64,000 nucleotides of DNA, taken from positions 2,272-66,271 of the forward strand of contig JAGCPJ010000074.1 of the NCBI GenBank assembly GCA_017965765.1. The letters are read 5' to 3'. The translations under genes and the position numbers were made by a program. Below are positions 23,368 through 55,916 of this stretch, in pieces. Each line of letters begins with the position of its first letter. The first letter of the stretch is position 1. The notes beneath the pieces are model-generated. The model was not told where the DNA came from. It did not search any database and saw only the letters and a program-made list of their open reading frames with translations. The stretch is from Bacteroidales bacterium. Lineage in GTDB: Bacteria; Bacteroidota; Bacteroidia; Bacteroidales; F082.

Positions 23368-23409
23368 ACGGAAAACGGAGAACGGAAAACGGAAAATTTT
23401 CCGTTCTCC
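23368..23409. repeat. GGARAAC heptamer element, asymmetric hairpin
   Basis: aacgg aaaacgg agaacgg aaaacgg aaaa|ttttccgttctcc. It starts at the base after the TAA stop. Confidence 0.9.
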
Positions 23410-23448
23410 ATCCTATTAGAGAGTTCAACATAAAAACCAATCAATACT

Positions 23449-23676
23449 ATGAAAAAAGTTGTTTTGACTATCGCTATCGTTCTCGGTCTGGGTATGGCTT
23501 CATTCGCTCAGAACGGTTTGTTCGGCAAGGGCGGTGAAGAAGGCGCCAAGGACATCGACATGCCCACCCTCCCCGGCCACGGCCTAACCACCAACCAGAA
23601 CGCTCCCCTGGGCAGCGGCGCTTTGCTGCTCCTCGGCTTCGGCGCTGCTTACGCCATGAGCAAGAAGAGAAAGTAA
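23449..23676 (+). CDS. small secreted protein with C-terminal motif-TM-basic tail
   Basis: 75 aa with signal peptide MKKVVLTIAIVLGLGMASFAQ. The C-terminus is LPGHGLTTNQNAPLGSG-ALLLLGFGAAYAM-SKKRK. Confidence 0.55.
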   Translation: MKKVVLTIAIVLGLGMASFAQNGLFGKGGEEGAKDIDMPTLPGHGLTTNQNAPLGSGALLLLGFGAAYAMSKKRK

Positions 23677-29295: not shown

Positions 29296-29327
29296 GAAAC
29301 GGAAAACGGAGAACGGAAAACGGAAAA
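29296..29327 (+). repeat. GGARAAC heptamer array, single arm (4.5 units)
   Basis: gaaacgg aaaacgg agaacgg aaaacgg aaaa. It begins at the base after the TAA stop (29293-29295). Confidence 0.95.
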
Positions 29328-33113: not shown

Positions 33114-34463
33114 TTATCTTACAAATCCGTTGGGTTCCATATCCACGCGATAACTGTATTCGGCATTGTCCCAAAGCGATTGCTCCAAAGAAATGCCTTT
33201 TTCCTTGGCTTGACGTTGCACGCTCTCCAGCCATTCGGGTGATTCCTTGATGCGCTGGATGTTCTTCTCGATCTCGGCATTGCGGAACGCAAGGTAGAGG
33301 CTGTCGGCCGCGTCGTATTGTTCCGAGGGTTTGTAACGGAAAACATTGTCGTAGCCGCTCAGATAACGCTCAATGAAACCGTATGGCCAAAGATGGTTGG
33401 TGGCCTCTGTGCAAAGAAGTAGTACAAAATCCTGATTTTCAATTTCTTGCTTGTAATCAACGGCTTCCACGTTTTGGATGGGCGAACGCTCGGGATAGAT
33501 GGTTTTGTTGTAGAACCAGAAGCCGCCATCGGAAAACAAGTGCTGAGGGAGCGCGATATTCCACGCATAGACGGTCCACCAATAAGAGTCGGAAATGGCC
33601 AACACCTTGGGTTTGTAGCCTTCCGTAAAGTGGAACACGGGCTGGTCAATGGTGTTGCGGGGTAACGGCAGCAGCAGGTTCATCATCTTGTATAAGTCGT
33701 CGTCCTGGTTCATCAGGAAAGTGGTGTCGAAGGCATCGATGACGGCATGGGCTTGGACCTGTCCCGTAATGCTTTCCATATAACGCACCAGCGAATCTAC
33801 AGCCAAGGAAGCCGTATAGGCCGTCCAGTGTGCACTCAGATTGCAATAGAACGGGTGGAGCTCGCGGTTTTTAAATGATATGAAGTATTGGTTGAAATCT
33901 ATCATCTCAACGTTTTGTGCTTCAAACGCTTTCAGGTATTCTTTATAATTATTGGTCTCCCGACCGTTTTTATAGTATTTTTCAGGAATCAGTTCGGGAT
34001 AATAGGAGGCCTTGCCTAGGGTGAAGACGGGCAGCAGGGTGATGCCTTTGGTGTGGAGCATCTCCTGGATGAGCTTGAGTTTTCGGGTGTTGTCTTGAAT
34101 GGCCTTGTCGCCGATATAGGTCTCGCCCGTATAGCTGATGATATACGACTCCTCGATAAAGGTAAAGTCGTCCTTGCCTTTCACGGGACCGATGGCAGAG
34201 ACCTTGCCAAAGGCAGAATATAGCAGCTGGTTGTTCAGGCGGATCATGGTGTTCCTAAACCCGGAGTGCTCTGTACACCAGGTCATCAGCGAGTCTTGCA
34301 CGGTCTCTTTCATCAGGGTCTTCAGGGTGATCTTGGGTAGGGGTGTCTCCACAAAAGCACCGTCCAAGGGCTTCTCCTTCACAACATGGAAGATGCCTTG
34401 CAGCATGGGCAGGAAGAGCACCAGCAGCAGCAACAGAAACCATATTTTCTTGAACGTTTTCAT
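33114..34463 (-). CDS. AlgJ/AlgX-like permuted-SGNH O-acyltransferase-family protein (type B)
   Basis: 449 aa with signal anchor MKTFKKIWFLLLLLVLFLP. A His block SAHW is followed ~85 aa later by ISDSYWW. The C-terminal module is PEWLESVQRQAKEKGISLEQSLWDNAEY. The ATG overlaps the upstream MBOAT stop (TGATG). Confidence 0.65.
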   Translation of the reverse strand: MKTFKKIWFLLLLLVLFLPMLQGIFHVVKEKPLDGAFVETPLPKITLKTLMKETVQDSLMTWCTEHSGFRNTMIRLNNQLLYSAFGKVSAIGPVKGKDDFTFIEESYIISYTGETYIGDKAIQDNTRKLKLIQEMLHTKGITLLPVFTLGKASYYPELIPEKYYKNGRETNNYKEYLKAFEAQNVEMIDFNQYFISFKNRELHPFYCNLSAHWTAYTASLAVDSLVRYMESITGQVQAHAVIDAFDTTFLMNQDDDLYKMMNLLLPLPRNTIDQPVFHFTEGYKPKVLAISDSYWWTVYAWNIALPQHLFSDGGFWFYNKTIYPERSPIQNVEAVDYKQEIENQDFVLLLCTEATNHLWPYGFIERYLSGYDNVFRYKPSEQYDAADSLYLAFRNAEIEKNIQRIKESPEWLESVQRQAKEKGISLEQSLWDNAEYSYRVDMEPNGFVR

Positions 34464-35953
34464 CAGAACCTGAAGTATATGAAGGGGTTGAAACTACCTT
34501 TAAGGATGAACGAAGCGGAGAGCAAGAGGAGGACAAGCATCAGCAAGCCGAGGAGAAGGCAACGGGGAGTGGAAAGTTTAAAGTTTAAAGTGGAAAGTTT
34601 ATCTAATTTCGACCGCAGGGTGGCACTGGGAACCAAACCGATGAAGGAGAAGATGGCGGCGATGATCAGGGTGAAGACAAATTGGCTGTTGACAAAAAGG
34701 GCCGGTGTGCTCCCATTGGCGCCAAACATGGCCCCTACGTAATGCACGGCGTAGCCGATGGTGTCGGAGCGGAACAGCACCCAGCCGATCATCACAATCA
34801 CGAACGTGAGGGGAACGGAAAACGGAGAACGGAAAGTGGAAAATTTTCCACTTTCCGTTCTCCGTTTTCCGTTTAATAGCTTATCCAAACAAATGAACAA
34901 CCCATGGTACGCGCCCCAAGCCACGAAAGTCCAGGCTGCGCCGTGCCAGAGACCGGAGAGGAAGAACACAATCCAAAGGTTGAGATAGGTCCTGCGAATC
35001 CCTTTTCTGTTGCCTCCCAAGGGGATATAGAGGTAGTCCATCATCCAGCGACCCAAAGTGATGTGCCAGCGTTTCCAAAACTCGGTGACGCTCCGACTGA
35101 TGTAGGGGTTATTGAAGTTCTCGGGGAACTTGAATCCAATCATCCTTCCAATGCCGATGGCCATGTCGCTGTAACCGGCGAAGTCGAAATAGATCTGGAA
35201 GGTGTAGGCGAGGATCCCCAGCCAGGCCGTGCTGGTGCCGATCTGCTGGGCGGGTAACGCAAACACTTGATCGGCATATTCCGCCAAGATATTGGCTATC
35301 AGCATCTTCTTTGATAAACCCAGGACAAAGCGGTAGAATCCCAAAATCCTGTTGTCCGTGGTCTCGTTGGCACTGCGGTCGGTGATCTGGTCGGCAATCT
35401 CGTTGTAACGCACGATGGGACCTGCAATCAACTGCGGGAAAAGCATGATGTACAACGCATAATCGGCGATGTTGTTCAGGGGTTTCGCCGTCCCACGATA
35501 GACATCGATGCTATAGCTCATCTTCTGGAAGGTGAAGAAGGAGATCCCAATGGGAAGGACAACCTTGGTCCAATGGATGGAATGGGCCCCAAAGACCCCA
35601 AGTAGCGCATTGAAGTTCTCAATGAAGAAGTTAGCGTATTTGAAATAGGCGAGGAGTCCAATATTCAATAGAATGGATAGCACCAAAAACGTTTTCCGTT
35701 CTCCGTTTTCCGTTTTACCTCCCATTCGGTCGGTGAGCCCTTCGGGGTTCCGTTTCCCCACTTCCCTCACCAAGAAGTAGTCGATGAGGATGGAAAGCAG
35801 CAGGATCAACAGGAACCTGGGCGAGCCGAAGCCATAGAACAGCAGGCTGAAGAACAACGCTACCGCGTTTTTGAGGCGGCGTCCTACGAGAAGATAGACC
35901 GCCAGGAACACAGGCAGGAAGTAGAAGAGGAATATGCTGCTGCTGAATACCAT
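34463..35953 (-). CDS. MBOAT-family membrane O-acyltransferase (AlgI/DltB-like), paralog 1
   Basis: Start set at MVFSSSIFLFYFLP, as in the three paralogs (the track extends to 35998). Motifs present are FWKRWHITLG and the catalytic-His block LSGLWHGAAW. It carries three in-frame repeat insertions. Confidence 0.85.
   Translation of the reverse strand: MVFSSSIFLFYFLPVFLAVYLLVGRRLKNAVALFFSLLFYGFGSPRFLLILLLSILIDYFLVREVGKRNPEGLTDRMGGKTENGERKTFLVLSILLNIGLLAYFKYANFFIENFNALLGVFGAHSIHWTKVVLPIGISFFTFQKMSYSIDVYRGTAKPLNNIADYALYIMLFPQLIAGPIVRYNEIADQITDRSANETTDNRILGFYRFVLGLSKKMLIANILAEYADQVFALPAQQIGTSTAWLGILAYTFQIYFDFAGYSDMAIGIGRMIGFKFPENFNNPYISRSVTEFWKRWHITLGRWMMDYLYIPLGGNRKGIRRTYLNLWIVFFLSGLWHGAAWTFVAWGAYHGLFICLDKLLNGKRRTESGKFSTFRSPFSVPLTFVIVMIGWVLFRSDTIGYAVHYVGAMFGANGSTPALFVNSQFVFTLIIAAIFSFIGLVPSATLRSKLDKLSTLNFKLSTPRCLLLGLLMLVLLLLSASFILKGSFNPFIYFRF
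34569..34603 (+). repeat. heptamer array GTGGAAA/GTTTAAA x5 inside CDS
   Basis: gtggaaa gtttaaa gtttaaa gtggaaa gtttatc. It encodes DKLSTLNFKLST in MBOAT-1. Confidence 0.85.
34814..34873. repeat. GGARAAC heptamer element, perfect 30+30 nt palindrome inside CDS
   Basis: aacggaaaacggagaacggaaagtggaaaa|ttttccactttccgttctccgttttccgtt. All 30 positions pair. It is 60 nt (20 codons) and encodes NGKRRTESGKFSTFRSPFSV. Confidence 0.97.
35690..35755 (-). repeat. composite element: reverse heptamer arm + 40-nt module B (truncated form) inside CDS
   Basis: cgttttccgttctccgttttccgtttt-acctcccattcggtcggtgagcccttcggggtt-ccgttt. It encodes KRNPEGLTDRMGGKTENGERKT on the minus strand. Confidence 0.95.
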
Positions 35954-35958
35954 CGGTC

Positions 35959-37974
35959 TTAAGGATTGTCGTGTTGTTGTCTGTTGTTCTTGATCCATTC
36001 CACGTCATGGGCAATCGTCACCAAGAAGGGCTTTTTGTTGCTCAGGGCTTTTTCCTTGATGCTTTTCAGGGACTTCTGGCTGATCCAAAAACCATGTTCA
36101 ATGAGGTAGTTCTCATACAGGGTCTTGAGTCTTTCGGGAGTGCACGACGCTTCGTTTTCCCTGTTTTGATACACCCAGAGTACATCGTCACGGAAGGCTT
36201 TGTCCAGGCTGACTTGCTTGTCGCGGGCTTTCTTCCGCAAGGTCTCAAGCGCGCTTTCGGTACCCATGCGTTGCATGATGTCGCTGAAGATGCAAGCCCG
36301 TTGCATCAGCGTGTCGTTCTCAAAGGCGTTGTGGCTGATGAGGCTGTCGATGATGGCCAGCGCCAAAGGTCTCAGCTCTTTTCGGCTCCCTTGGCTTTCG
36401 GGCCTCCTCCGCAAGCTGTCGAGGGTCATTTCCACCCAATGGTCGATATAGTCGTAAGGGGTGAAGAGCACGTTATTCTGGATGAGGGGTCTGCCGTTGA
36501 TGAGGTTTCCACTCTCGATCTCGAAGACCTTGTCGAGGTTGAGCGAGTCGTGCTTGGCCTTGCATTCCATCAGGAACGACCAGTCCTTGTTGTTCCGGAT
36601 TGCCCGTTCTGCAAGCAGCTGTCTCAGCTTGGGATTGCGACAGGTGGGCACCTCGGTCCCTCGCAACTCCTCGAAGAGTTCAGGGTTGCGTATCAACTTG
36701 ACGTCCGCATAGTTCAGGTAGTTTTTTCGCTCCCATCCGTCCACAGGATGGTAAAGGGCCAGGCTGTCGGCCACCTCTTGTCTTTTCTCTTGAAAGCGCT
36801 CATCGCTGATGCACAGCCCGATCAAGGTCTTGCCAAAGAACTGGAAACCGTCGTTGTACAGCTGTGGTGCGTTCTTGAAATAGATGACATAGTCGTGGCA
36901 CAGCACTTCCCTCAGGTAGTTGATCTGGTTCAGGTCGAGGATGGTCTGTTCTTCGTTGGTGTAGTATTGGGCGTCATAGAAGATGAGATCGCGGCGGCTG
37001 AATACCTTTTCGAAGGGCACCCGCGGGGTCATGTACCAGAAGTAGGAGGTGCCGATGAACAATGCGGAGGGATACACGGTGTTACTGTCGGCCTCGATGG
37101 TGACAGGGATCTCCCATAAAGGCATGTGTTGCTTGGGTATCTTGACGATGTTCAGCAGTTCTGCCAGATCCCGGTCTTTGCTGTTGACATCTTTCTCGGC
37201 CACTTCGTACGGGGTTCCCATGACGATGTCGGCCAGCTGGTCGCCTTTCAAAGTCTCCATGAACCGGAACAGCGAATCGGTTGCCAGCACCGCTCCAGAG
37301 GCCCAGTGACTGCCTTTTTCGTAGAACAGGGTGAAGGGGTAGTCGTGACGGAGGGTCTGGAACCATGGGGTCATGTTGATATGCGGGAAGCCGGCCTTGG
37401 TGAGTTGTTCGTTGTAATACACGTCAGCGTGGAAGGTGGTGTCGATAAACCGTTGGGGTCGCAGGTGTTCGGGATAGATGTAGCTCTTCACGGGCAAGGT
37501 GAAGGTCATCAGCTCCACGCCGTATTCTTTGAGGATCGCCCGGATCTTCACCAGCGACCGGGTCTCGATGGCGAGGTTTTGCTCAAACTCCTCGTTGCTG
37601 AGGTTGTGCCGTTGGTTCATCCTGCCGAAGTACTGCACGGTTCCGTCTTTTTGGTACAACCACCCGTCCTTGCCCACGGTAATCTCGCCGCTGAAGGTCT
37701 TGTGATAAAAGTCATAGACATACTGGTTGTACATGCGGATGACGGGGATCCTGAACCCGAAGTTCTCGCTGATGTAGGTCTCGGTCTGTCGCTGCCACTG
37801 GCCGTTTTTATAGTTTTCGAAGCTGAGCTCGGGTTTTGGAGCTTTGTGATACACACCGCTTAGCCTTTGGAATTTGAACAACTTGAAGTGCTCTTCCATC
37901 ATCGGGAGGAAGAGGAAGAGCATCAGGATGCCGAACAGGATAGGATAGAGCAGCGTGCGTTTCTTCATGGCCAA
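35959..37974 (-). CDS. AlgJ/AlgX-like permuted-SGNH protein, long form with triplicated C-terminal module (type B)
   Basis: 671 aa with signal anchor. The AlgJ-like N-region is ENFGFRIPVIRMYNQYVYDF...VGKDGWLYQKD. The His block is KGSHW. The Ser block is IGTSYFW (GTS rather than GDS). Three C-terminal helical modules are present. Confidence 0.65.
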   Translation of the reverse strand: MAMKKRTLLYPILFGILMLFLFLPMMEEHFKLFKFQRLSGVYHKAPKPELSFENYKNGQWQRQTETYISENFGFRIPVIRMYNQYVYDFYHKTFSGEITVGKDGWLYQKDGTVQYFGRMNQRHNLSNEEFEQNLAIETRSLVKIRAILKEYGVELMTFTLPVKSYIYPEHLRPQRFIDTTFHADVYYNEQLTKAGFPHINMTPWFQTLRHDYPFTLFYEKGSHWASGAVLATDSLFRFMETLKGDQLADIVMGTPYEVAEKDVNSKDRDLAELLNIVKIPKQHMPLWEIPVTIEADSNTVYPSALFIGTSYFWYMTPRVPFEKVFSRRDLIFYDAQYYTNEEQTILDLNQINYLREVLCHDYVIYFKNAPQLYNDGFQFFGKTLIGLCISDERFQEKRQEVADSLALYHPVDGWERKNYLNYADVKLIRNPELFEELRGTEVPTCRNPKLRQLLAERAIRNNKDWSFLMECKAKHDSLNLDKVFEIESGNLINGRPLIQNNVLFTPYDYIDHWVEMTLDSLRRRPESQGSRKELRPLALAIIDSLISHNAFENDTLMQRACIFSDIMQRMGTESALETLRKKARDKQVSLDKAFRDDVLWVYQNRENEASCTPERLKTLYENYLIEHGFWISQKSLKSIKEKALSNKKPFLVTIAHDVEWIKNNRQQHDNP

Positions 37975-39309
37975 TCAGTTGTTTGCTTTCTTTTTTCTTT
38001 CGGTGATTACATACATGGCATTGCGGCGCAGGTTTTCTTCTGTGCTCAAACCTCGTTCCTTGGCCTGGCGTTCAACGGCTTGCATCCATCCAGGATTGTC
38101 TGAGATTTCTTGCATCACCAGTCGAAGTGTTGTCTCTAGGTCGTCAGGATCTCTGGCGTACAGTTCCATGGCGCTTTCGGGGAATCCGTACATGTATTGG
38201 TAAAAACAAGGCGCCGTGAAGACGGCCATGACGATGTCGGCTTCTTTGAGGACCTTGGGTGCTTCAATCAGGTATTTCACCTCTCTGCCGTTGTAGGCTT
38301 GGTTGGAAGAGGCGATGTCGCGGTTGTATTTCCAGTAATCCCACTGGTGGAAGGCCTCGACGAAACAGGAGTTTCGCAGTTGGATGAAATAACTGTCGCC
38401 GATGACGAGCAGGTTGGGATGGTCCTTGCCAACCGTATCGGTCAAAGCGAAAACAGGTCGTGGCAGGGCGGGTTTCTCTATCGGGAAGAGCAGGTTCAAC
38501 TGGCCTTCTAACTCGCCGTCTTGGACGGAGTAGTCGGAGGTGGGGTTGGGGTCAAGGTATTCGATGGACGGCAGCTGGTAGCCTGTCAAGTCCTCCAGTG
38601 TTCGCAACAGGGTGTCGGCGACCATGGGGATGCAGGCCTCGGACCAATGGGTGCCCGTCCGGGTATAGAGCGGGTAGGGGAAGTGGTCCTTGAGGGACTT
38701 GAAGTAGTTGAGGAAGTCGATGTGCGGGATGCCGTTTTCCTTGAAGAGTTGGATATAATATTCTTCCAGCGAGAAGTCGGCGATTTGCCGCTGGTAGGTG
38801 GTGGGCATGAATTCGGGATAGACCGCGGTCTTGGAGGGGGCGAAGACGAAGAGGAACTCGGTGCCGTGCCGATGCAGGGTGTCGATGAGCCGCAAGGTGG
38901 CTTCCACGTTGCTCCGGGCTTCGGCTTTGGCGGCCTCCACATCGGGATAAAACACCAAGAGGCGCTCTCCGGTGATCTCTTCCAGATACATCTTCAGGTA
39001 GAGTTCCTTGTTCTTGCCGCACACCACGTTGTCGTTGGTGATCTTGTTGAAGCAGGTGTAGGCGATCTGGTTATAGTTCCGGATCAGGAATTCCCGAAAT
39101 CCGGTGTTTTCCTTGGCATAGTCGGTGAGATAGTCTTGGAAGGTGCCGTCGTAGTAGGTGCTGAAACGCAGCGGCACGGTGTCGAGTTCATCGGTATAGC
39201 CGTGGAGTGGCTTGGTGTTCACGGCATGGGTGAGACCTTGCAGCAGCACGGCCAGCAGCATCGCAAGGATGCAGGCAAATTGTATCGTGTAGCAGACAGG
39301 TCTTTTCAT
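37975..39309 (-). CDS. AlgJ/AlgX-like permuted-SGNH protein (type A)
   Basis: 444 aa with signal anchor. Blocks DYAKENTGFREFLIRNYNQ, TGTHW and VIGDSYF are present. The C-terminal module is NPGWMQAVERQAKERGLSTEENLRRNAMYV. Confidence 0.65.
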   Translation of the reverse strand: MKRPVCYTIQFACILAMLLAVLLQGLTHAVNTKPLHGYTDELDTVPLRFSTYYDGTFQDYLTDYAKENTGFREFLIRNYNQIAYTCFNKITNDNVVCGKNKELYLKMYLEEITGERLLVFYPDVEAAKAEARSNVEATLRLIDTLHRHGTEFLFVFAPSKTAVYPEFMPTTYQRQIADFSLEEYYIQLFKENGIPHIDFLNYFKSLKDHFPYPLYTRTGTHWSEACIPMVADTLLRTLEDLTGYQLPSIEYLDPNPTSDYSVQDGELEGQLNLLFPIEKPALPRPVFALTDTVGKDHPNLLVIGDSYFIQLRNSCFVEAFHQWDYWKYNRDIASSNQAYNGREVKYLIEAPKVLKEADIVMAVFTAPCFYQYMYGFPESAMELYARDPDDLETTLRLVMQEISDNPGWMQAVERQAKERGLSTEENLRRNAMYVITERKKKANN

Positions 39310-39321
39310 GGTTGTCGTGGG

Positions 39322-40827: not shown

Positions 40828-40837
40828 GTTTGTTGTA

Positions 40838-42544
40838 TTAGAATAATTCTCCGTTGATAAGTTTTTCTTGGATGACCCACCGTGCGTCTTCTTGCATGAC
40901 GGTTTCGTAATCCTTGCCTTTATCCTTGGCTTTGCGTTCTAGGAAAAGGGTTTGCTTGGGGTCGTTTCGCCACAGGTTGATGAGTTTCTCAACCTCATAT
41001 TGTATGATGGTAGCCGTATCGGCTTGGATTTCATCCTTAAGCAACGGCCGTCCGAACAAGACATTCTCGGCCTCTTTGTCCAAGAGTTCGGCAAAAGACC
41101 GTTCGGTTTTTGAGGCAGCCATTTCCAAGGTCGTTTTCCACAGTTTGTCATTGGCAATGGTGTTGGCTTGCTGGGCCAGGGCAATGGCTTTGGTGTTGCG
41201 GATGGTCGGCATGGCTTCGCCACGTAATCCAGGGATCAGTTCTGGATTGCTTTTTAAGAGATTAATGGCATATTGGCGCAAGGAATCAGGTGATATCTCG
41301 CAATAATGTTGTGCGTAATACTTCGCTTTGAAAGCACTATCGTTGCCCAAGCTATCCATCACCCAGGGGATCTGTGCGTCAAAAAGGCTGTCGGTGACAC
41401 AAAGCTGGATCAAGGCATCTTCCACAAAGTCGTATGAAGCCCTACTCCACTGATAACCAGATGAATACCAAACAACATAATCGGCATTCAAAAGGGAACG
41501 CAACCGATTGATTTCGGTGACAGGATGCCGTTCTTTGTCGAAACCGACAAAAGCCGCTTTGTTATAGAACCAGATTTCAACATCGGCAAGGATTTCTTTC
41601 CAAGGCATGTAGGTCTCTAGGTCCCAAATGAAGGAATCACCAACGAAAAGCACTTTGGGTTTGTGACAACCTTCATCGCAGTCAATGGTGATGTCGGCGC
41701 GATATTTCGGGGAATCGTTACCTATTGGGAAGAGGAGATTGAGCGTTTGTTCGTCGTTTTCGAGATATTCCGTGTCTAGTGCTATCAACTGATTGACATG
41801 GATGTCGGGGATGCCAAAGCCGTTGAGGCTGTCCATGTAGCTGAACAGGCTGTCGAAGCCATAGACGGCAGCATAGCGCCAATGCGTGTCGCGTTTTGGG
41901 AACAAGGGAAACGAAGCCGTGTCTTTCATGGCCAAATACCACTTGGTCATCTCCACATGTGGGAAACCAATCGCCGTCATCAGCGAATCGTAATAGGCCG
42001 CTGTATGGATGACATTGCCTTTGGGTGGTTCGTGGTAGGGTAGGTATTCGGAATAGATTTCCGCTTTGTCGGGTGCCATAAAACATAGGAACTCAACGCC
42101 ATAGTCTTTCAAAACATAACGTAGTTTGTTCATCATCCTGACATTCTTTTGCGCCCAGATTCTGGCATTGTCGTAGGTTTTGTAGAAATGGAGCGGCTCA
42201 ATGCCATAATACTCCCGAAAAGCTTCTGAATAAAACAGATAGCCGTCTTTTCCCGGGGTGATAAAGTGGCAATGGGTTTTGTTGAAACAGCTGTAGGAAA
42301 CCTGGTTGTAAAGCCGGATGGCCCATTCTCGGAACCCAGTGTTTTCCTTGGCATAGTCGGTGAGATAGTCCTGGAACGTGCCGTCGTAATAGGTGCTGAA
42401 GTTCAGCGGTACGGTGTCGAGTTCATCGGTGTAGCCGGCAAGCGGCTTGGTGTTCACGGCATGGGTGAGACCTTGCAGCAGCACGGCGAGCAGCACCACT
42501 AGGATGCTGGCAAATTGTATCGTGTAGCGGACAGGTCTTTTCAT
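40838..42544 (-). CDS. AlgJ/AlgX-like permuted-SGNH protein (type B body with type A N-terminus)
   Basis: 568 aa. It is the only paralog with the canonical His block RDTHW. The Ser block is FVGDSFIW. It has two C-terminal helical modules. The first ~70 aa are nearly identical to those of the 37975..39309 product. Confidence 0.65.
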   Translation of the reverse strand: MKRPVRYTIQFASILVVLLAVLLQGLTHAVNTKPLAGYTDELDTVPLNFSTYYDGTFQDYLTDYAKENTGFREWAIRLYNQVSYSCFNKTHCHFITPGKDGYLFYSEAFREYYGIEPLHFYKTYDNARIWAQKNVRMMNKLRYVLKDYGVEFLCFMAPDKAEIYSEYLPYHEPPKGNVIHTAAYYDSLMTAIGFPHVEMTKWYLAMKDTASFPLFPKRDTHWRYAAVYGFDSLFSYMDSLNGFGIPDIHVNQLIALDTEYLENDEQTLNLLFPIGNDSPKYRADITIDCDEGCHKPKVLFVGDSFIWDLETYMPWKEILADVEIWFYNKAAFVGFDKERHPVTEINRLRSLLNADYVVWYSSGYQWSRASYDFVEDALIQLCVTDSLFDAQIPWVMDSLGNDSAFKAKYYAQHYCEISPDSLRQYAINLLKSNPELIPGLRGEAMPTIRNTKAIALAQQANTIANDKLWKTTLEMAASKTERSFAELLDKEAENVLFGRPLLKDEIQADTATIIQYEVEKLINLWRNDPKQTLFLERKAKDKGKDYETVMQEDARWVIQEKLINGELF

Positions 42545-42556
42545 GGTCGTTGTAGG

Positions 42557-44110
42557 TTAGAATCGGAAGTAGATGAAGGGACTGAAGCCCGTGGCGTTGA
42601 GGGCGCCCAAGCAGAAGACGAAGGCGCAGAGGCTGACCACGAAGGCTAAGATATGCTGTCTTTTGTTGTATTCGGTGAAATAGACCTTGTCCTGGACTTT
42701 GAGACCGAACTTCGAGAGGGTGAAGAAGGAGAAGAAGGCGGCGATGAGCATGGTCACATAGAGATGGGGGTTCTCGCCGAAGTGGAAGGGGACGAAGTCA
42801 AAGGCAAAGAGCCGCTTGATGAAGAGCCAGGAGAGGTCGATGCGCTCTATGCGGAAGAAGCAACGGGTGAGCACGATGAGGCAGAAGGTGAAGAAGACGG
42901 ACGGGATGCGGCCCATCCGCTCATTGAACTTCTTAAGGAAGAGCTTGTCGGCACAGATGAAGATGCCTTGCAACGCGCCATACACCACGAAGTTCCACGC
43001 GGCACCATGCCAGAGACCGGAGACGAGGAAACAGAACCATAGGTTGAAGTACTTTCGGGCCTCGGTCTTGACGCGGCTGCCTCCCAAGGGGAAGTATAGG
43101 TAATTCGTGATGAATACGCAGAAGGTCTGGTGCCAGCGACGCCAGAACTCGGAGATGGTCGTGGAGACATAAGGGTTGTCGAAGTTTTCGGGGAAACGGA
43201 AACCCATCATGCGGCCCAAGCCGATGGCCATGTCGCTGTAACCCGCAAAGTCGAAATAGATCTGGAAGGTGAAGGCCAGGATGGTGATCCAGGCCGTGGT
43301 GGAGTCGATGGCGGCGATCTTGTTGGCGATGTCGGCCAACTGGGCGGAGGTCAACACATCGTAGTTCGAGGGACCCAATACCTGGTCCACCTGGAAACCA
43401 ATGACATCGGCGATGAGCACCTTCTTGCACAAACCTAACACAAAACGGTAAAAACCGTGCAGCCGGTCGGTGTAAAGCGACTCTCGGTTGCGGATCTGGT
43501 CGGCGATATCGCAATAGCGGACGATGGGACCGGCGATGAGCTGCGGAAACATCACGATGTAAAGCATGTAGTCGCTCAACCGCTCCATCGGCTTGTTGAC
43601 GCCTCGGTAGGTGTCCAAGGTGTAGGTCACGCTCTGGAAAGAGAAGAACGAAATGCCAATGGGCAACAAGATCTTGGTCCAAGAGAGGCTCTTGAAGCCC
43701 GCCCAACCGAGGATGGTGTTCAGGTTCTGCATCGTAAAGTTGCCGTATTTGAAGTAAAACAGCAACCCAATGCTGATGGCAATGGAGAGGCCGCAAAGCA
43801 ACTTTGATAACGGAAAACGGAACCCCGAAGGGCTCACCGACCGAATGGGAGGTAAAACGGAAAACGGAAAATTTTCCGTTCTCAGTTTTCCGTTTTCCTT
43901 TTCTTTTGCCTTCATCATCCAACGCACTAGATAAAAGTTGGCGATGGTGGAAAGGATCAAGTGGATGATGAACTCCGGGGCGCCGTAGGCGTAAAACAAC
44001 AAGGAGGCGAACAGCAACACGTAATTCCGGATCTTTCGCGGCGTCAGGAAATAGACCGCAAAGAAAATCGGCATGAAGTACAATAGAAATACGTTGCTGC
44101 TGAATACCAT
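42557..44110 (-). CDS. MBOAT-family membrane O-acyltransferase, paralog 3
   Basis: 517 aa. N-terminus MVFSSNVFLLYFMP, with FWRRWHQTF and VSGLWHGAAW. It has one composite insertion, in the opposite orientation to paralogs 1 and 2. Confidence 0.85.
   Translation of the reverse strand: MVFSSNVFLLYFMPIFFAVYFLTPRKIRNYVLLFASLLFYAYGAPEFIIHLILSTIANFYLVRWMMKAKEKENGKLRTENFPFSVLPPIRSVSPSGFRFPLSKLLCGLSIAISIGLLFYFKYGNFTMQNLNTILGWAGFKSLSWTKILLPIGISFFSFQSVTYTLDTYRGVNKPMERLSDYMLYIVMFPQLIAGPIVRYCDIADQIRNRESLYTDRLHGFYRFVLGLCKKVLIADVIGFQVDQVLGPSNYDVLTSAQLADIANKIAAIDSTTAWITILAFTFQIYFDFAGYSDMAIGLGRMMGFRFPENFDNPYVSTTISEFWRRWHQTFCVFITNYLYFPLGGSRVKTEARKYFNLWFCFLVSGLWHGAAWNFVVYGALQGIFICADKLFLKKFNERMGRIPSVFFTFCLIVLTRCFFRIERIDLSWLFIKRLFAFDFVPFHFGENPHLYVTMLIAAFFSFFTLSKFGLKVQDKVYFTEYNKRQHILAFVVSLCAFVFCLGALNATGFSPFIYFRF
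43809..43898 (+). repeat. full composite element (~90 nt), forward orientation, inside CDS
   Basis: The leading forward arm is aacggaaaacgg. Module B is aaccccgaagggctcaccgaccgaatgggaggt. A second forward arm is aaaacggaaaacggaaaa. The reverse arm is ttttccgttctcagttttccgttttcc. This is the reverse complement of the architecture at 39656-39750. It encodes KENGKLRTENFPFSVLPPIRSVSPSGFRFP on the minus strand. Confidence 0.95.
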
Positions 44111-44130
44111 GTCGGTGATTAATTAATCTG

Positions 44131-44138
44131 CAAAAATA
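44131..44138 (-). promoter_or_regulatory. -7 box TAnnTTTG (TATTTTTG), internal to the array
   Basis: The plus strand reads caaaaata. It lies in the only sizeable gap (40 nt) of the array, ~20 nt upstream of the MBOAT-3 ATG. Confidence 0.4.
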
Positions 44139-44150
44139 ACAATTCTATCG

Positions 44151-45509
44151 TTATGGTTGTTGACTCTCGTAGGCTTCCTGTTTTTTCTTGTCTGCATCAA
44201 GCACATAGATGGCATTGTTGCGAAGGTTTTCCTCTACGCTGACGTTCCGCTCGGAAGCCTGTTCCACGATACGCTCATACCACTGTGGATTATTCTTTAT
44301 CTCATTGATTTTCAGTTGAATAGTTTCTTCTTCGCTTAAAGATCCTTTGGCAAATAGCCGGAAGGCGGTCTGCTCAAAGCCCCAGAGGTATTCGTAGATG
44401 TAGGCGGAGGTGACGATGGCGACCACGATGTCGGTTTCTTCCAGCATCTCGTAGGCCTTGGCATAATAGGGCACTTTCTTCCAGTTGAGGTATTCTCTGC
44501 TGGAGAGGATGTTGTCGTTGTATTGCCAGAAATCCCAGCGGTTGAAGGCGTCGGCGAAACAGGAGTTGACCAGCTGGATGCTGTAGCTGTCTCCGACAAT
44601 CAGCAGGTTAGGCTTGTCCTTCCCGAGGGTGTCCGTCAAAGTGAAACTGGGTCTCGACACGGCGGGTTTCTTCACGGGGAAATACAGGTTCATCAAGGCC
44701 TCGAGCTCGCCGTCCTGTTCCGAATAGTCGGTGCTGTAGTTCTCGTCCAGAACCTGGATGTCGGGGAATCGGTAGGGTGTCATGGCTTCCAGTTTTCTCA
44801 AGAGGGTGTCGGCCACAAGGGGAATGGTGGCTTCGGACCAATGGGAACCGTACCGGGTGTAAAGCGGGTAGGGGAAGGTGTCCCGCAATGTCTTGAAGTA
44901 GTGGGTGAAGTCGATATGGTTGATGCCGTGTGCCTTGAACTGTTCGATATAGTATTGGGAGAGCAGGAAGTCGCAGTGTTCCAAGCTGTCGCGATAGGCG
45001 TCGGGCAGATTCTCGGGATAGGTGAGCACCTTGGAAGGGGCGAAGACGAAGAGAAATTGTGTGCCGTGACGCTGTAGGGTGTCGATGAGCCGCAGGGTCT
45101 CCTGGACGTGCTCTCGGGCTACCGCTTTGGCGCTGTCTGCGGTCTTGAAGTATTCTTTGACGCGTTTTCCGGTGACGTCGTCGAGGTACATCTTCATGTA
45201 CAGCTCGTTGTTTTTGCCGCATACCACGTTGTCATTGGTGATCTTGTTGAAGCAGAGATAGCAGCATTGGTTGTAGTTTCGGATGAAAAACTCCCGGAAG
45301 CCTGTATGCACACGGGCATAGTCGGTGAGGTAATCCTGATAGCTGCCGTCGAGCCAAGTGTCCACCTTCAGCTTCACGGGCCTTTTGGCGTCATAGAAAC
45401 CCACCAAAGGCTTTGCGGGCACCCAATGCGTCAGTCCTTGGACGAAGATGGCCACCAAGAACCCCATGAGGCAAAGGAAGGGAATCGTAAAATGGGGGCG
45501 GTTTTTCAT
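44151..45509 (-). CDS. AlgJ/AlgX-like permuted-SGNH protein (type A)
   Basis: 452 aa and a close paralog of 37975..39309. Blocks DYARVHTGFREFFIRNYNQ, YGSHW and IVGDSYS are present. The C-terminal module is NPQWYERIVEQASERNVSVEENLRNNAIYV. Confidence 0.65.
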   Translation of the reverse strand: MKNRPHFTIPFLCLMGFLVAIFVQGLTHWVPAKPLVGFYDAKRPVKLKVDTWLDGSYQDYLTDYARVHTGFREFFIRNYNQCCYLCFNKITNDNVVCGKNNELYMKMYLDDVTGKRVKEYFKTADSAKAVAREHVQETLRLIDTLQRHGTQFLFVFAPSKVLTYPENLPDAYRDSLEHCDFLLSQYYIEQFKAHGINHIDFTHYFKTLRDTFPYPLYTRYGSHWSEATIPLVADTLLRKLEAMTPYRFPDIQVLDENYSTDYSEQDGELEALMNLYFPVKKPAVSRPSFTLTDTLGKDKPNLLIVGDSYSIQLVNSCFADAFNRWDFWQYNDNILSSREYLNWKKVPYYAKAYEMLEETDIVVAIVTSAYIYEYLWGFEQTAFRLFAKGSLSEEETIQLKINEIKNNPQWYERIVEQASERNVSVEENLRNNAIYVLDADKKKQEAYESQQP

Positions 45510-45518
45510 GGCGTCGGC

Positions 45519-47048
45519 TTAGAATCTGAAATAGATGAAGGGGCTGAAACGGGAAGCATTCAAGGCGGCGATGCAGAAGAGGAAGGCTGCCACGCTGAGG
45601 ATCCAAACAAAGATGTGCTGCCTGTCGGTGAATGCGTGGTTATACACCCAGTCCTGCAGTTTCCTGCCTGCTTTGGTGAGGGTGATGAAAGAAAATATGG
45701 CGGCCAAGAGCAGGGTGACGTAGAACCTGGGATTGAGGCTGAAAGGTAACGGCGCAAACTGGAAGGCAAACATCCTGCCGATGAAAGTCCAAGCCAAGTC
45801 GAGCTTCTCTATACGGAAGACCATCCACGTCACCGTGACGAAGAGAAAGGTGAGGAGAACGGAAAACGGAGAACGGAGAACGGAGAGTTTTCCGTTTTCC
45901 GTTCTCCGTTTTCCGTTGAATACCTTGTCCAAGCAGATGAAAAGCCCGTGCAAGGCGCCCCAAACCACGAAATTCCAGCTGGCACCATGCCAGAGGCCAG
46001 AGAGCAGGAAGCAGATCCAGAGGTTGAGGTAGGTGCGTGCCTTGCCTTTGCGGTTGCCGCCTAAGGGGAGGTAGAGGTAGTTCTTGATGAAGGCGCCCAA
46101 AGTGATGTGCCAGCGGCGCCAGAACTCCGTGATCGACTTGGAGACGTACGGGTTGTTGAAGTTCTCCGGGAATTTGAACCCCATAATACGGCCCAAGCCG
46201 ATGGCCATGTCGGAATAGCCCGCGAAATCGAAGTAGATCTGGAAGGTATAGGCCAGTGCCACCATCCAGGCGGTGGTGGAGTCAAGCATGGCAATGCGTT
46301 CCGTGAGGGTTGCCAGACGCTCTGCGCTGATCGCCGATAGGTTAGCGGGACCCAAGATGGCATCGACTTCCATCCCGATGACATCGGCGATGAGGATCTT
46401 CTTGCAAAGGCCGATGACAAAACGGTAGAACCCTTGCAGACGGTCTGCGTACCCTGACTCGCGATGGCGGATCTGGTCGGCTACGTCGCAATAGCGGACG
46501 ATGGGACCCGCGATGAGCTGGGGAAACATCGTGATGTAGAGCATGTAGTCGCTGAGCTTTTTCATGGGCTGGTTCACCCCCCTGTAAGTGTCCAAGGTGT
46601 AGGTGACACTTTGGAACGAGAAGAACGAAATGCCAATGGGAAGGAGAATCTTGGAGAACGGAGAACGGAGAACGGAAAACTGAGAATAACCGAGACGGCC
46701 TAAAAGCCAAAATAGGTTTTCCGTGAAGAAGTTCGCGTACTTGTAGAAGACCAACAATCCGATGGGAATGGCAATGGACAGCCCACAAAGGATCTTGGAG
46801 AATGGGGAGTTTTCCGTTTTCCGTATTCCGTTTTCCGTTTCCTTTGCTGCTACCATGGCTTTCACCAAGTAGAAATTGGCAATGGTGGAGACAACAAGCT
46901 GGATCAGGAAATCGGGCGCACCCCAGGCGTAGAACAGCAAGGAAGCGAAGAGCAAGGCGTAGTTTCTGGCCTTCCTGGGCAACAGAAAGTACAACAGGAA
47001 GAATCCTGGCATGAAGTACAGTAGAAATACATTGCTGCTAAATACCAT
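45519..47048 (-). CDS. MBOAT-family membrane O-acyltransferase, paralog 4
   Basis: 509 aa. N-terminus MVFSSNVFLLYFMP, with FWRRWHITLG and LSGLWHGASW. It has three in-frame heptamer insertions. Confidence 0.85.
   Translation of the reverse strand: MVFSSNVFLLYFMPGFFLLYFLLPRKARNYALLFASLLFYAWGAPDFLIQLVVSTIANFYLVKAMVAAKETENGIRKTENSPFSKILCGLSIAIPIGLLVFYKYANFFTENLFWLLGRLGYSQFSVLRSPFSKILLPIGISFFSFQSVTYTLDTYRGVNQPMKKLSDYMLYITMFPQLIAGPIVRYCDVADQIRHRESGYADRLQGFYRFVIGLCKKILIADVIGMEVDAILGPANLSAISAERLATLTERIAMLDSTTAWMVALAYTFQIYFDFAGYSDMAIGLGRIMGFKFPENFNNPYVSKSITEFWRRWHITLGAFIKNYLYLPLGGNRKGKARTYLNLWICFLLSGLWHGASWNFVVWGALHGLFICLDKVFNGKRRTENGKLSVLRSPFSVLLTFLFVTVTWMVFRIEKLDLAWTFIGRMFAFQFAPLPFSLNPRFYVTLLLAAIFSFITLTKAGRKLQDWVYNHAFTDRQHIFVWILSVAAFLFCIAALNASRFSPFIYFRF
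45855..45917. repeat. GGARAAC heptamer palindromic element inside CDS (27/30 arm matches)
   Basis: gagaacggaaaacggagaacggagaacggagag|ttttccgttttccgttctccgttttccgtt. It encodes NGKRRTENGKLSVLRSPFSV. Confidence 0.95.
46653..46687 (+). repeat. GGARAAC heptamer array, forward single arm, inside CDS
   Basis: ggagaac ggagaac ggagaac ggaaaac tgagaat. It encodes SQFSVLRSPFS on the minus strand. Confidence 0.9.
46810..46842 (-). repeat. GGARAAC heptamer array, reverse single arm, inside CDS
   Basis: ttttccgttttccgtattccgttttccgtttcc. It encodes KETENGIRKTENSP on the minus strand. Confidence 0.9.
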
Positions 47049-47050
47049 GG

Positions 47051-48457
47051 CTATTCTTTTTGTTGTTCTTTGAGGTATTGCATCACTGCGCTGGACCTGC
47101 GGGTGGGAATGCTGTCTTTCAAGGCGGGAAGGAAGATGTGGGGCGAATGGGTCACCACATACTCAGCTTCGTGGACCACCGTGGTGTCAAGGGGAATCTG
47201 ATACTCTTCCGCACGCCGTTGCAAGGCCGCTAACCACGCCTTGTTTTGCTTGATGTTTTCAACCAGATCTGTTTTGATTTGCCGTAGTTCCTCATCGTCG
47301 TAACACAGTCTCGGCAACAGTCGGGTGGAGAAGCCGTTGCTCATCTTGTAGAGTTGCGTCGTGCTGTAGGCGAGCATCACAAAGTCGGCATCCAGCACTT
47401 CTTTGACGAGGTCGAGTTCGGAGGTGTTGTGGTAGGGCTCTTCAAAATAGACGGTGCTGTTGTAGTACCAGTAGGGTGTTGCGCCGAAGATTTCCTTGAA
47501 CGGGGTGTGGTTGAGGATGTTCCAGTAGAAGGAGTCGCCAATGGTGATGAGGACGGGACGCTTGGCCGTGGGGTCTTCAATCACCTCGGTCTTGGCAAAA
47601 TAGTTCGGTGCGGTCTTCAAAGGCCGGATGAGGTTCATCAGTTGCTCCAAGTCGTTGTCGGGATCCACCGTCTGGACATATTTCTCTCCGATGCTGAAAT
47701 TCAACAGGTTGACATGGCCCAATGCCTCCATGTAGCGTACCAGGCTGTCGGCGACATACATGGCGGCCAGGTTGCTCCAGTGGGTTCCGGTCTGGGGAAA
47801 GAGCGGGAAGTCAGCGGTGTCTTTCATCTGGAGGAACCACTGTCCTACATCGATGTAGTTGACGCCCATTTCGGAGAACTTCTTGCCGTAGTAGTCGTAT
47901 GCGGTGATCTCTTTTTCACGGAAGTATTTCGTGTTTTCAGGCAGGTGTTCCGGATAGATGGCTTCCTTCCCGGGCAGCAGCAGCACAAAGAGATGGGTGC
48001 CGTAGGCTTCCAGGATATGTTGGATCTGGTAAAGCATGAGCGCTTCGGTGTCGAACTGTTTGGCCATGTCGATTGCATCTTTCGAATAGCGATGGGCATT
48101 GCCTTGGTAATATTCTTCCACACTCATCGCCTCGTAGTACCATTGGTCGTCGCTGATGTAGATGCCTTTGTTTTTCAGGTTCGAGTAGTGGAACAGGTCC
48201 CATTGGGTCTGATTGTATAGCCTGGTCAGCGGTTCCCGGAAACCGTAATGGTTCTGGAGATGGCGCTCCACGCCTTGCTGAAAACGTTGGTTTTTCCAAT
48301 GCTCGTACGTCAATGTCGGGATAGGCTGCTCAGCGACGACACCTTTCAAGCTGCGAAACTTGATGATGTGGAGTTGCTGCAAGGGCAAGGCGATCACCAC
48401 CACGGCGGTGAGGATGAATAATATGCGTTTGGTACGTGTATTCATGCGCTTTATCAT
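47051..48457 (-). CDS. AlgJ/AlgX-like permuted-SGNH protein (type B), first gene of the array
   Basis: 468 aa. The AlgJ-like N-region is LQNHYGFREPLTRLYNQTQW, with TGTHW and TIGDSFYW. The C-terminal module is NKAWLAALQRRAEEYQIPLDTTVVHEAEYV. An alternative start at 48445 (MNTRTKRILF) is suggested by the promoter box at 48459-48466. Confidence 0.65.
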   Translation of the reverse strand: MIKRMNTRTKRILFILTAVVVIALPLQQLHIIKFRSLKGVVAEQPIPTLTYEHWKNQRFQQGVERHLQNHYGFREPLTRLYNQTQWDLFHYSNLKNKGIYISDDQWYYEAMSVEEYYQGNAHRYSKDAIDMAKQFDTEALMLYQIQHILEAYGTHLFVLLLPGKEAIYPEHLPENTKYFREKEITAYDYYGKKFSEMGVNYIDVGQWFLQMKDTADFPLFPQTGTHWSNLAAMYVADSLVRYMEALGHVNLLNFSIGEKYVQTVDPDNDLEQLMNLIRPLKTAPNYFAKTEVIEDPTAKRPVLITIGDSFYWNILNHTPFKEIFGATPYWYYNSTVYFEEPYHNTSELDLVKEVLDADFVMLAYSTTQLYKMSNGFSTRLLPRLCYDDEELRQIKTDLVENIKQNKAWLAALQRRAEEYQIPLDTTVVHEAEYVVTHSPHIFLPALKDSIPTRRSSAVMQYLKEQQKE

Positions 48458-48458
48458 G

Positions 48459-48466
48459 CAAAAATA
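48459..48466 (-). promoter_or_regulatory. -7 box TAnnTTTG (TATTTTTG) for the MBOAT/AlgJ array
   Basis: The plus strand reads caaaaata, in the divergent 52-nt spacer shared with the U32 peptidase gene. Confidence 0.45.
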
Positions 48467-55892: not shown

Positions 55893-55916
55893 AAACGGAA
55901 AACGGAAAACGGAAAA
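55891..55916 (+). repeat. GGARAAC heptamer array, single arm (3.5 units)
   Basis: gaaaacgg aaaacgg aaaacgg aaaa. It overlaps the ftsX stop codon (TGA 55890-55892). Confidence 0.9.

Follow-up and report, generated by a model that had tools for sequence, protein, structure and literature searches.

Why a single locus should hold four membrane-bound O-acyltransferase (MBOAT) genes and six genes for AlgJ/AlgX-like partner proteins is the question raised by a stretch of 64,000 nucleotides from a Bacteroidales bacterium (GenBank assembly GCA_017965765.1, contig JAGCPJ010000074.1, positions 2,272 to 66,271 of the forward strand), the whole of which is called the window in what follows. Pairs of an MBOAT and an SGNH protein are a general bacterial route to the acylation of envelope polymers and bear on immune evasion, phage adsorption, and biofilm properties; the characterised cases comprise one or two pairs, each tied to a known polymer. 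The present locus differs from these in that there are several copies of the donor enzyme, the acceptor enzymes have diversified widely, and the content turns over between species, as in O-antigen and capsule loci. On balance, we favour the view that the array is an expanded, species-variable kit adding acyl groups to a cell-envelope or secreted glycan, in which the extra acceptor-side proteins would provide different acceptor specificities. The biochemistry is that expected of such enzymes, while the scale, the evolutionary pattern, and the link to a GH16-like enzyme are new.

The genes of the array and their products

The array occupies positions 33114–48457 on the minus strand and consists of ten intact open reading frames (ORFs), four of which encode MBOAT proteins (M) and six ALGX-family proteins (J) according to Pfam. 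All ten products lie above the gathering scores of their families, PF03062 (MBOAT, cutoff 27 bits) and PF16822 (ALGX, cutoff 26.5 bits), the M proteins with 82–128 bits (E values of 6e-23 to 6e-37) and the J proteins with 36–54 bits. The original prediction, made from the letters of the DNA, had described ten same-strand genes with four MBOAT and six AlgJ/AlgX-like products and had proposed profile searches as a check, and both the gene count and the assignments hold. The order of transcription is J1-M1-J2-M2-J3-M3-J4-J5-M4-J6, which reads J6-M4-J5-J4-M3-J3-M2-J2-M1-J1 along the plus strand. The predicted order has to be corrected, as it placed a J-J pair between M2 and M1, whereas the actual pair, J4-J5, lies between M3 and M4; likewise, the array had been drawn to 48466, while J1 begins at 48457.

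The first gene, J1 (47051–48457), encodes 468 residues with an N-terminal signal anchor (PF16822, E = 3.7e-14) and is followed by M1 (45519–47048; 509 residues; PF03062, E = 4.5e-30), which has FWRRWH at residue 309, GLWHGA at residue 351, a C-terminal FIYFRF, and in-frame heptad-palindrome inserts. J2 (44151–45509; 452 residues, E = 7e-13) carries GSHW and GDS and is of the same type as J4; M2 spans 42557–44110 (517 residues, E = 6.4e-23). A long helical C-terminal extension distinguishes J3 (40838–42544; 568 residues, E = 7e-9), in which the Asp of DTHW is kept. M3 (39322–40827; 501 residues, E = 1.2e-31) and J4 (37975–39309; 444 residues, E = 2e-12) lead to J5 (35959–37968), with 669 residues counted from the ATG (E = 3.6e-13), GTS as its block I, and again a long helical C-terminal extension. 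The array is completed by M4 (34463–35953; 496 residues from the Met of MVFSS, E = 5.8e-37) and the last gene, J6 (33114–34463; 449 residues, E = 2.3e-11), with SAHW and SDS.

Taken as longest ORFs, the genes are separated by 2, 9, 40, 12, 10, 12, 0, −40, and −1 nt. A locus of the same species, L016 (related loci carry L numbers here), corrects the last three distances to about 0–6, about 5, and −1 nt. The value of −40 arises from a longest M4 ORF that begins at 35998; the Met of MVFSS (35953), which is the start in L016, gives about +5. J5 probably starts at the ATG at 37968 rather than at the TTG at 37974, the L016 ortholog being called at 669 residues, and the stop of M4 and the start of J6 share one nucleotide. 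The tight spacing with a single 40-nt gap that had been predicted is thus reproduced, the remaining distances being −1 to 12 nt.

The motifs quoted in the prediction are also present throughout. MVFSS(N/S), GLWHGA, and FW(K/R)RWH can be read directly from the translations of all four M proteins. In each J protein, a single hydrophobic anchor at the N-terminus is accompanied by GFR...(Y/N)NQ, by an xxHW block, and, further downstream, by a (G/S)(D/T)S block. The MBOAT catalytic His (in GLWHGA) is found in all four M proteins and is invariant (H368) in an alignment of nine sequences, the four M proteins and five orthologs. The C-terminal end is FIYFRF in the four M proteins and five orthologs, which fits the FXYXXF hexapeptide with its invariant Tyr. 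According to a 2025 study, acyl-CoA-dependent bacterial MBOATs carry a C-terminal FXYXXF whose Tyr is auto-acetylated and then serves as donor to the Ser of the SGNH partner, as shown for PatA, while in the Dlt system the shuttle motif is found on a separate microprotein, DltX, and not on the MBOAT (PMC12148441).

The only NCBIfam match of the M proteins is DltB (TIGR04091), with 143–173 bits, far under the cutoff of 375 bits, and the alignment to this model stops near residue 411 of M1, after which about 100 further residues follow. By hydropathy, M1 has two hydrophobic 19-mers beyond the DltB-like core (442–460 and 478–496), with counterparts in M2–M4. Because of the FIYFRF end, the sub-cutoff DltB score, and the extra C-terminal hydrophobic segments, we assign the M proteins to the AlgI/PatA/WssH class and not to DltB; their sequences predict acyl-CoA-dependent MBOATs with a fused acyl shuttle. 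In a database look-up, the exact protein sequence of M1 was not on record.

Among the J proteins, J1 was the one modelled. Its AlphaFold2 model (31 orthologs, pLDDT 86.5) has an SGNH-like fold with a cap domain resembling those of AlgJ and AlgX, and the top PDB match in Foldseek is AlgJ (4o8v, E = 7e-12, target TM score 0.61). Further matches are AlgX (4knc and 7ula, E of about 1e-7 to 2e-7) and Bacillus cereus PatB1 (5v8d, 5e-6), the next match having an E value of 0.09. The GTHW and GDS of J1 are invariant across 31 orthologs. All six J proteins share H226 and S309 (numbered as in J1), the His lying upstream of the Ser in the permuted SGNH order; together with the resemblance of the J1 model to AlgJ, AlgX, and PatB1, this supports the His-before-Ser arrangement that had been predicted. 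H226 aligns with the His of the AlgJ DTHW, and the alignment of the six J proteins shows the Trp of this block and the Lys of PxK to be invariant as well.

The PxK and (R/K)TDTHW signature motifs of AlgJ have been defined previously (PMC4148444). In the array, the (hydrophobic)3-P-x-K signature takes the forms LLLPGK, VFAPSK, FMAPDK, VFAPSK, and FTLPVK, and in J6 it reads VFTLGK, with the Pro replaced and the Lys kept. Sequence searches of PDB with J1 and with a J1 profile gave only marginal AlgJ/AlgX matches (E = 0.014–0.1), which span the His block and leave the Ser unaligned, and NCBIfam contains no family for the J proteins.

The six J proteins had been divided into two subtypes, A and B. 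They form instead five types (five clusters at 50% identity), J2 and J4 being the only close pair with 56% identity; the other pairs are 24–30% identical, apart from the J4-like first ~100 residues of J3. The 5′ ends of J3 (42279–42587) and J4 (39044–39352) share ~309 nt at ~89–92% identity in a cross-comparison with L016. In the window, the first ~80 residues of the two proteins are almost identical and the remainder is ~30% identical. To judge from the aligned sequences, the shared 5′ stretch looks like the result of gene conversion or of a domain swap of the membrane anchor and membrane-proximal module.

Relatives of the array and the GH16-like neighbour

The array had been viewed as a fourfold tandem amplification. 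The M paralogs are 47–64% identical in pairwise comparisons and the J paralogs 24–56%, so that the array is an old, diverged paralog set, reshuffled between species, with no recent amplification. M2 is the most conserved MBOAT of the clade, its orthologs in relatives being 82–88% identical to it and the one MBOAT that L014 has being 76% identical.

Three rumen assemblies independent of one another (L016–L018) show the order J3-M3-J4-J5-M4-J6 again, with 97% nucleotide identity, which excludes an assembly artefact for the J3-to-J6 part. Relative to L016, the ratio of nonsynonymous to synonymous substitution rates (dN/dS) is 0.06–0.20 over these six genes, indicating purifying selection (M3, 0.07; J4, 0.14; J5, 0.09; J6, 0.06); the neighbouring S46 peptidase gene gives 0.03 for comparison. 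The strain-level insertions and deletions are all in frame (3, 15, and 33 nt) and, together with the dN/dS values, indicate that the six tested genes are maintained by selection.

An M/J array is found at the same site in 12 related metagenome-assembled genomes (MAGs) and in L013, between a U32 peptidase gene and a convergent block that encodes N645, a CotH-domain protein, and the S46 peptidase. In close relatives, the arrays contain 2–4 M and 4–7 J genes whose order is shuffled, the figure of 2–4 M genes applying to all relatives whose sequence extends far enough. The order is, for example, M1-Jx4-M2-Jx3-M4-J6-J3 in L005–L007, Jx4-M2-J4-M3-J4-Jx3-J6-J3 in L004, and J1-M1-Jx4-Jx8-M2-J4-Jx3-J6-J3 in L023. 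The sole fixed pair is M4-J6, adjacent in L002, L005–7, L009, L020, L036, and L037. Orthologs of J3 are found in nearly every array and end it in the relatives, J6 and J3 being neighbours in most of them. At 50% identity, the 45 M proteins of 21 related loci form one cluster, while the 88 J proteins form 18 clusters, five of which are held by the window.

A wider survey covered 80 metagenome loci with MBOAT relatives (34–86% identity). One MBOAT, usually then one J, is found in 72 of the 80, which bears out the earlier statement that a single MBOAT per locus is the norm. Three or more occur in only two of the surveyed loci, the close relatives L022 and L036, and two in L023, L035, and L037; the multi-MBOAT expansion is thus typical of the clade and rare outside it. 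The prediction had named, as the finding that would count against it, four-MBOAT arrays that are common and already characterised in this clade. Arrays with 2–4 M genes are indeed common there, but the second half of the clause does not apply, and our literature search found no report on MBOAT/AlgX proteins in Bacteroidales, on an MBOAT together with GH16, or on the envelope chemistry of Limimorpha. The relatives of J3 (67–73% identity) come only from uncultured rumen or gut Bacteroidales MAGs, one of which is named Candidatus Limimorpha sp., and the array is flanked by Bacteroidota housekeeping genes and several proteins with sorting tails of the type IX secretion system (T9SS). The host is an uncultured Bacteroidales species of the rumen or gut, close to Candidatus Limimorpha.

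The prediction had left the substrate open, since no polymer synthase, AlgF, or carrier protein is adjacent. The array is, however, convergent with the gene of a 645-residue protein, N645 (31157–33094, plus strand), which is GH16-like and coupled to M-J pairs by a shared motif and by synteny. N645 is membrane-anchored at its N-terminus, and its C-terminal half is a GH16-like β-jelly roll: the top 50 PDB matches of the AlphaFold2 model (mean pLDDT 71) are all GH16 proteins (best E = 1.3e-7, target TM scores 0.28–0.58), among them laminarinases, lichenases, porphyranases, carrageenases, xyloglucan endotransglycosylases, and Crh transglycosylases. The stretch YSEIDIEIVKA (E468-I-D470-I-E472) does not vary among 30 homologs, the most distant of which is 58% identical, and E-x-D-x-(x)-E is the catalytic consensus of GH16. 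The same C-terminal half scores 20.5 bits (E = 3.6e-4) with the GH16 family PF00722, whose gathering score is 22, and no Pfam family is found above threshold; a sequence search of PDB with N645 gave no match.

The shared motif is a helix-turn-helix of ~35 residues (xPxW...AxExGxSxE...DAxW/YV) that lies at the C-termini of the J proteins and is common to every J and N645. A profile built on the J copies and run over all window ORFs finds residues ~168–202 of N645 with 28 bits (E = 2e-8) and no other non-J protein, and the key residues of the motif are invariant in the N645 family. As for synteny, all close relatives have N645 beside the array; in L019, 5.7 kb separate it from a J-J-M cluster, and L020 has an operon of the order CotH-N645-MBOAT. 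In L021 and in the distant loci L040 and L042, N, M, and J follow one another on the same strand as an uninterrupted operon, the M proteins of the latter two being 41–42% identical, and N-M-J is therefore the probable ancestral module.

Proposed function and its alternatives

The reading of the array as an expanded acylation kit is based on the protein families, the motifs, the folds of J1 and N645, synteny, and the purifying selection on J3–J6, M3, and M4. By homology to PatA/PatB and AlgI/AlgJ/AlgX, cytoplasmic acyl-CoA would give up an acyl group, which is most likely acetyl, to the MBOAT, whose catalytic His would load the Tyr of the C-terminal FIYFRF on the outer side of the inner membrane. 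The J proteins would act as inner-membrane-anchored, periplasm-facing O-acyltransferases, in which the Ser, activated by the His of the upstream HW block, receives the acyl group and esterifies a hydroxyl of an extracytoplasmic glycan. Here, we infer the identity of the acyl donor and of the polymer, the direction in which the group moves, and the allotment of one specificity to each J protein.

The array would then be a lineage-specific expansion of an ancestral three-gene module of a GH16-like protein, an MBOAT, and a J protein. N645 would probably cut or transglycosylate the same polymer, in parallel with the glycanases and lyases of other exopolysaccharide systems, and its synteny and GH16-like fold suggest to us that the acylated glycan is probably β-linked. 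Since the M proteins have stayed similar while the J proteins have diversified (one cluster versus 18), the extra copies most likely represent acceptor specificities. Acceptor-side J genes would be gained, lost, and shuffled, directing acylation to different positions, sugars, or polymers and giving species-specific acylation patterns. The multi-specificity or combinatorial O-acylation suggested in the prediction is a reasonable reading, to which the contrast of 18 J types with one M type lends indirect support.

It is instructive to compare the array with the characterised systems. With AlgI-AlgJ-AlgF-AlgX of Pseudomonas it shares an MBOAT with a C-terminal acyl shuttle, membrane-anchored permuted SGNH-like proteins, more than one ALGX-family protein per MBOAT, the PxK and HW motifs, and AlgJ as the best structural match of J1. 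Unlike that system, it comprises four MBOATs and six J proteins rather than one and two, only one of the six J proteins has the triad Asp, and the glycan-active enzyme coupled to it is GH16-like and not a lyase. No AlgF, carrier protein, or alginate synthesis or export gene is found in the 64-kb window, the gaps within the array being too small for a hidden ORF, and there is no lyase gene with the array; a Pfam scan of the six J proteins found no AlgX-like carbohydrate-binding module.

Several MBOAT/ALGX-like pairs per genome are also known from Bacillus cereus and Bacillus anthracis (PatA1-PatB1 and PatA2-PatB2), the former contributing the PatB1 structure 5v8d that matches J1. In B. anthracis the two pairs act on one wall polysaccharide and thus provide a two-pair precedent (PMC7759979). 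These pairs, however, are two in number and belong to Gram-positive hosts, with no contiguous ten-gene array and no GH16-like partner, whereas the proteins of the array would sit in the inner membrane of a Gram-negative member of the Bacteroidota.

The nearest analogy to the N645-M-J module is found in cellulose acetylation. In WssFGHI of Pseudomonas fluorescens and CcsH/CcsI of Clostridioides, an MBOAT and an AlgJ-like protein reportedly stand beside a hydrolase of the same β-glucan, BcsZ or CcsZ (PMC10302187, PMC7710045). These loci contain a cellulose synthase and a single MBOAT, unlike the array, which has no linked synthase. The BcsZ/CcsZ-type hydrolases are moreover of GH8/GH5 type and not GH16-like.

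The PatA-PatB system of Neisseria and Campylobacter has in common with the array the MBOAT catalytic His and the C-terminal FXYXXF (FIYANF in Neisseria gonorrhoeae PatA, FIYFRF here), and by analogy the transfer mechanism is probably the same. PatB, in contrast, is an SGNH protein of canonical order and not an ALGX protein, and the system consists of a single pair with an Ape esterase and peptidoglycan as acceptor. With DltB-DltD, the likeness is in the MBOAT core, reflected in the TIGR04091 match; the differences are the shuttle motif, fused to the MBOAT here and carried by DltX there, the lack of DltA, DltC, DltX, and DltD partners in the window, and the Gram-negative host.

Several observations weigh against our preferred reading. 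The Asp of the AlgJ DxH triad motif is retained only in J3 (KRDTHW) and is replaced by Gly in J1, J2, J4, and J5 and by Ser in J6, the Gly being invariant in 31 J1 orthologs. The chemistry may therefore differ, or some of the five proteins concerned may only relay or bind. In Pseudomonas aeruginosa AlgJ, the substitution D193A abolishes alginate acetylation (PMC4148444). As far as the alignment can tell, these five form a divergent subgroup of the ALGX family, without the canonical triad acid, and would use a His-Ser dyad or another acid, the other invariant Asp residues (D237, D267, and D358) being candidate substitutes.

Further points on this side are that the structural models cover J1 and N645 only, that the GH16 Pfam score of N645 is just under threshold and the quality of its model medium (pLDDT 71), and that dN/dS covers six of the ten array genes, J1, M1, J2, and M2 lying outside the L016–L018 loci. 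The relatives are all uncultured MAGs, and the MBOAT ORFs contain strong hairpin elements. Finally, no polymer synthase or export gene is found in the 64-kb window or beside the arrays of close relatives, in line with the earlier remark that an AlgF, a carrier protein, and an obvious polymer synthase are absent from the vicinity.

The missing triad Asp leads to an alternative in which one or two machines would be built from the six J proteins as non-redundant subunits, those without the Asp handing off the acyl group or acting as scaffold and some, such as J3, acylating. Such separate roles are known from the alginate system, where membrane-anchored AlgJ hands the acetyl group on to AlgX, the only one of the two that binds the polymer and acetylates it (PMC4148444). 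A relay would also agree with the excess of J over M, with the existence of J-J neighbours (J4-J5 in the array, J6-J3 in most relatives), and with the presence of an ortholog of J3, the one J protein with the Asp, in nearly every array. The His and Ser are nevertheless invariant in all six J proteins, J3–J6 are all under purifying selection, and Pfam finds the AlgX-like carbohydrate-binding module in no J protein. The great variation of J content across species, with 18 types, is moreover hard to fit to a fixed multi-subunit machine, and we consider the relay unlikely. Much less probable is that the acceptor is peptidoglycan, with PatA/PatB-like acetylation of MurNAc for autolysin control or lysozyme resistance, as might be read from the PatA-type FXYXXF C-terminus of the MBOATs and from a housekeeping neighbourhood that includes an M23 peptidase, FtsX, and BacA. 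The partners belong to the ALGX family and not to the PatB-type SGNH proteins, and those ALGX proteins that have been characterised have alginate and a secondary wall polysaccharide as substrates; an Ape-type esterase was not found. A single invariant acceptor would not call for four MBOATs, as many as 18 J types, and a GH16-like enzyme coupled to them, and we know of no GH16 enzyme that cleaves peptidoglycan.

We likewise attach very little probability to a catabolic role, in which the J proteins are esterases on imported acetylated plant oligosaccharides, the GH16-like protein cleaves dietary β-glucans, and the MBOATs work in the salvage direction or have another role. It is true that AlgJ-type proteins show acetylesterase activity in vitro (PMC4148444). 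The rumen or hindgut habitat and the common role of GH16 enzymes in degrading dietary β-glucans would suit such a role, and the diversity of the J proteins could mirror that of acetylated plant glycans. Against it, thermodynamics disfavours the transfer of acetyl from a sugar ester onto a thioester, and no SusC/SusD or other feature of a polysaccharide utilization locus is found near the array. All characterised bacterial MBOAT-SGNH pairs, in addition, run biosynthetically (PMC12148441). The possibility that the duplicates are redundant or in decay, or that the assembly has falsely multiplied a repeated pair, comes to mind with tandem paralogs in metagenome-derived sequence and with repeat elements within the MBOAT ORFs, but we give it almost no credence. 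For the six tested genes it is largely refuted by the dN/dS values of 0.06–0.20 and by the recurrence of the J3-to-J6 order, at 97% identity, in three independent assemblies; all ten ORFs are intact with their catalytic motifs, and the paralogs (24–64% identical) are too diverged for assembler collapse or duplication.

The acylation kit may be taken one step further, although only tentatively and with more doubt than belief. N-M-J could be an unrecognised three-component Bacteroidales pathway that remodels and O-acylates an undescribed β-linked glycan of the periplasm or surface. The at least 18 acceptor-enzyme types in the Limimorpha-like rumen lineage would then write combinatorial, species-specific acyl "barcodes", for example in the evasion of phages or host antibodies, and the 35-residue motif would be a docking module on the MBOATs. 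Apart from this proposal, the conserved GH16-like partner points to a glycan not yet described in Bacteroidales, and the J proteins of the clade supply, in at least 18 related transferases, natural material for the study of acceptor choice in the ALGX family, including a set without the canonical triad Asp. The array is also an entry point to the envelope glycan of an abundant, uncultured rumen lineage.

Neighbouring genes and palindromic elements

Upstream of N645 lies the gene of a CotH-domain protein (29334–31160, plus strand; PF08757, E = 1.5e-41) with chitobiase-C/Fn3-associated domains and a Por_Secre_tail (T9SS). Its stop overlaps the start of N645 by 4 nt, an arrangement that makes co-translation of the two probable. 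The adjacency is kept in L001–L012, L016–18, and L020, the relatives sometimes having two CotH paralogs. CotH is a possible accessory of the array, with a weaker link to it than N645. As a universal member of the module it was considered and rejected, the 672-residue gene upstream of N-M-J in L042 being unrelated to CotH and the link being limited to the close clade. A 644-residue gene downstream of N-M-J in L042 was likewise examined as a relative of N645 and found to be unrelated.

In L042 (12779–21407 of a 1.04-Mb metagenome contig), N-M-J is followed by genes of a GT2 glycosyltransferase (244 residues), a STELLO-like glycosyltransferase, and the 644-residue membrane protein, and the opposite strand encodes a PMT_2 (GT-C) protein of 686 residues and a 689-residue ORF, possibly a second PMT_2 protein. 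L042 is the only locus in which the search for a linked synthase came upon such glycosyltransferases nearby. This context hints at the assembly of a periplasmic glycan from polyprenyl-linked sugars. The window also carries a PMT_2 protein gene (58–1464), 33 kb from the array. PADLOC returned no defence-system match for M1, J1, N645, and CotH, and a sigma-70 promoter scan, whose models do not cover Bacteroidota promoters, gave fewer matches than in shuffled sequences.

A palindromic element recurs in the window: tandem copies of the heptad ACGGA(A/G)A are succeeded by the same heptads in inverted orientation, and as many as 30+30 nt can pair without a mismatch. It amounts to 25 runs in the 64 kb, with none in shuffled sequences. 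Eleven of the runs are found in the four MBOAT genes and none in the J genes. In M4 the element is located at 34814–34873 (a perfect 30+30 nt hairpin, in frame) and 35693–35713, in M3 at 39673–39702 and 40574–40587, in M2 at 43857–43870, and in M1 at 45859–45916, 46658–46678, and 46811–46824. Outside the array, it is found at 15155–15196, 16839–16910, 17029–17042, 23368–23395, 24487–24551, 29299–29326, 31228–31248, 49789–49832, 50037–50093, and 55895–55915.

Nineteen of the 25 runs are in frame within intact ORFs, namely those of the four MBOATs, DcuC, the U32 peptidase, a tetratricopeptide repeat (TPR) protein, and N645, and encode peptides such as NGKRRTENGKLSVLRSPFSV; the tract is free of stop codons in all six frames. 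In the MBOATs, the inserts occupy loop positions where the orthologs run shorter, and they are absent from the orthologous MBOATs of other species. The remaining six runs lie between genes, where four form terminator-like hairpins immediately behind a stop codon, and a terminator scan mainly found the palindromic inserts again. The element is present in L016–L018 and absent from 17 other related loci, and is thus species-specific. Its behaviour resembles that of the Rickettsia palindromic elements. Our literature search found no report of comparable in-frame palindromes in Bacteroidota, and Rfam, run over the window, gave two tRNAs only and assigned the hairpin elements to no family. That the MBOAT genes vary in phase through slippage of the heptads was considered and is not supported: in a sample of four strain-level sequences, heptad number does not change and all insertions and deletions are in frame.

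Nested in the heptad element of M4 is a 33-nt in-frame insert (35715–35747, encoding NPEGLTDRMGG) with a GAGCCC-UUCG-GGGUUC hairpin. Similar copies are found in M3, near 40590–40625 and 39705–39740, and in M2, near 43815–43850. The insert in M4 of the window is absent in the same-species loci L016–L018 and is therefore a recent or mobile insertion.

Two further features lie at a distance from the array. A segment of 4.9 kb (18820–23675) is missing from the same-species locus L016, where its flanks are 95–97% identical, and hence represents a strain-specific insertion or deletion; it contains the gene of a 1478-residue secreted protein with fn3 repeats and a GEVED domain (18931–23367), followed by a heptad hairpin. 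At 60501–61220, a small protein with an NADase-translocation F5/8 type C domain (PF25302) is encoded beside a 626-residue T9SS-tailed protein (61477–63357).

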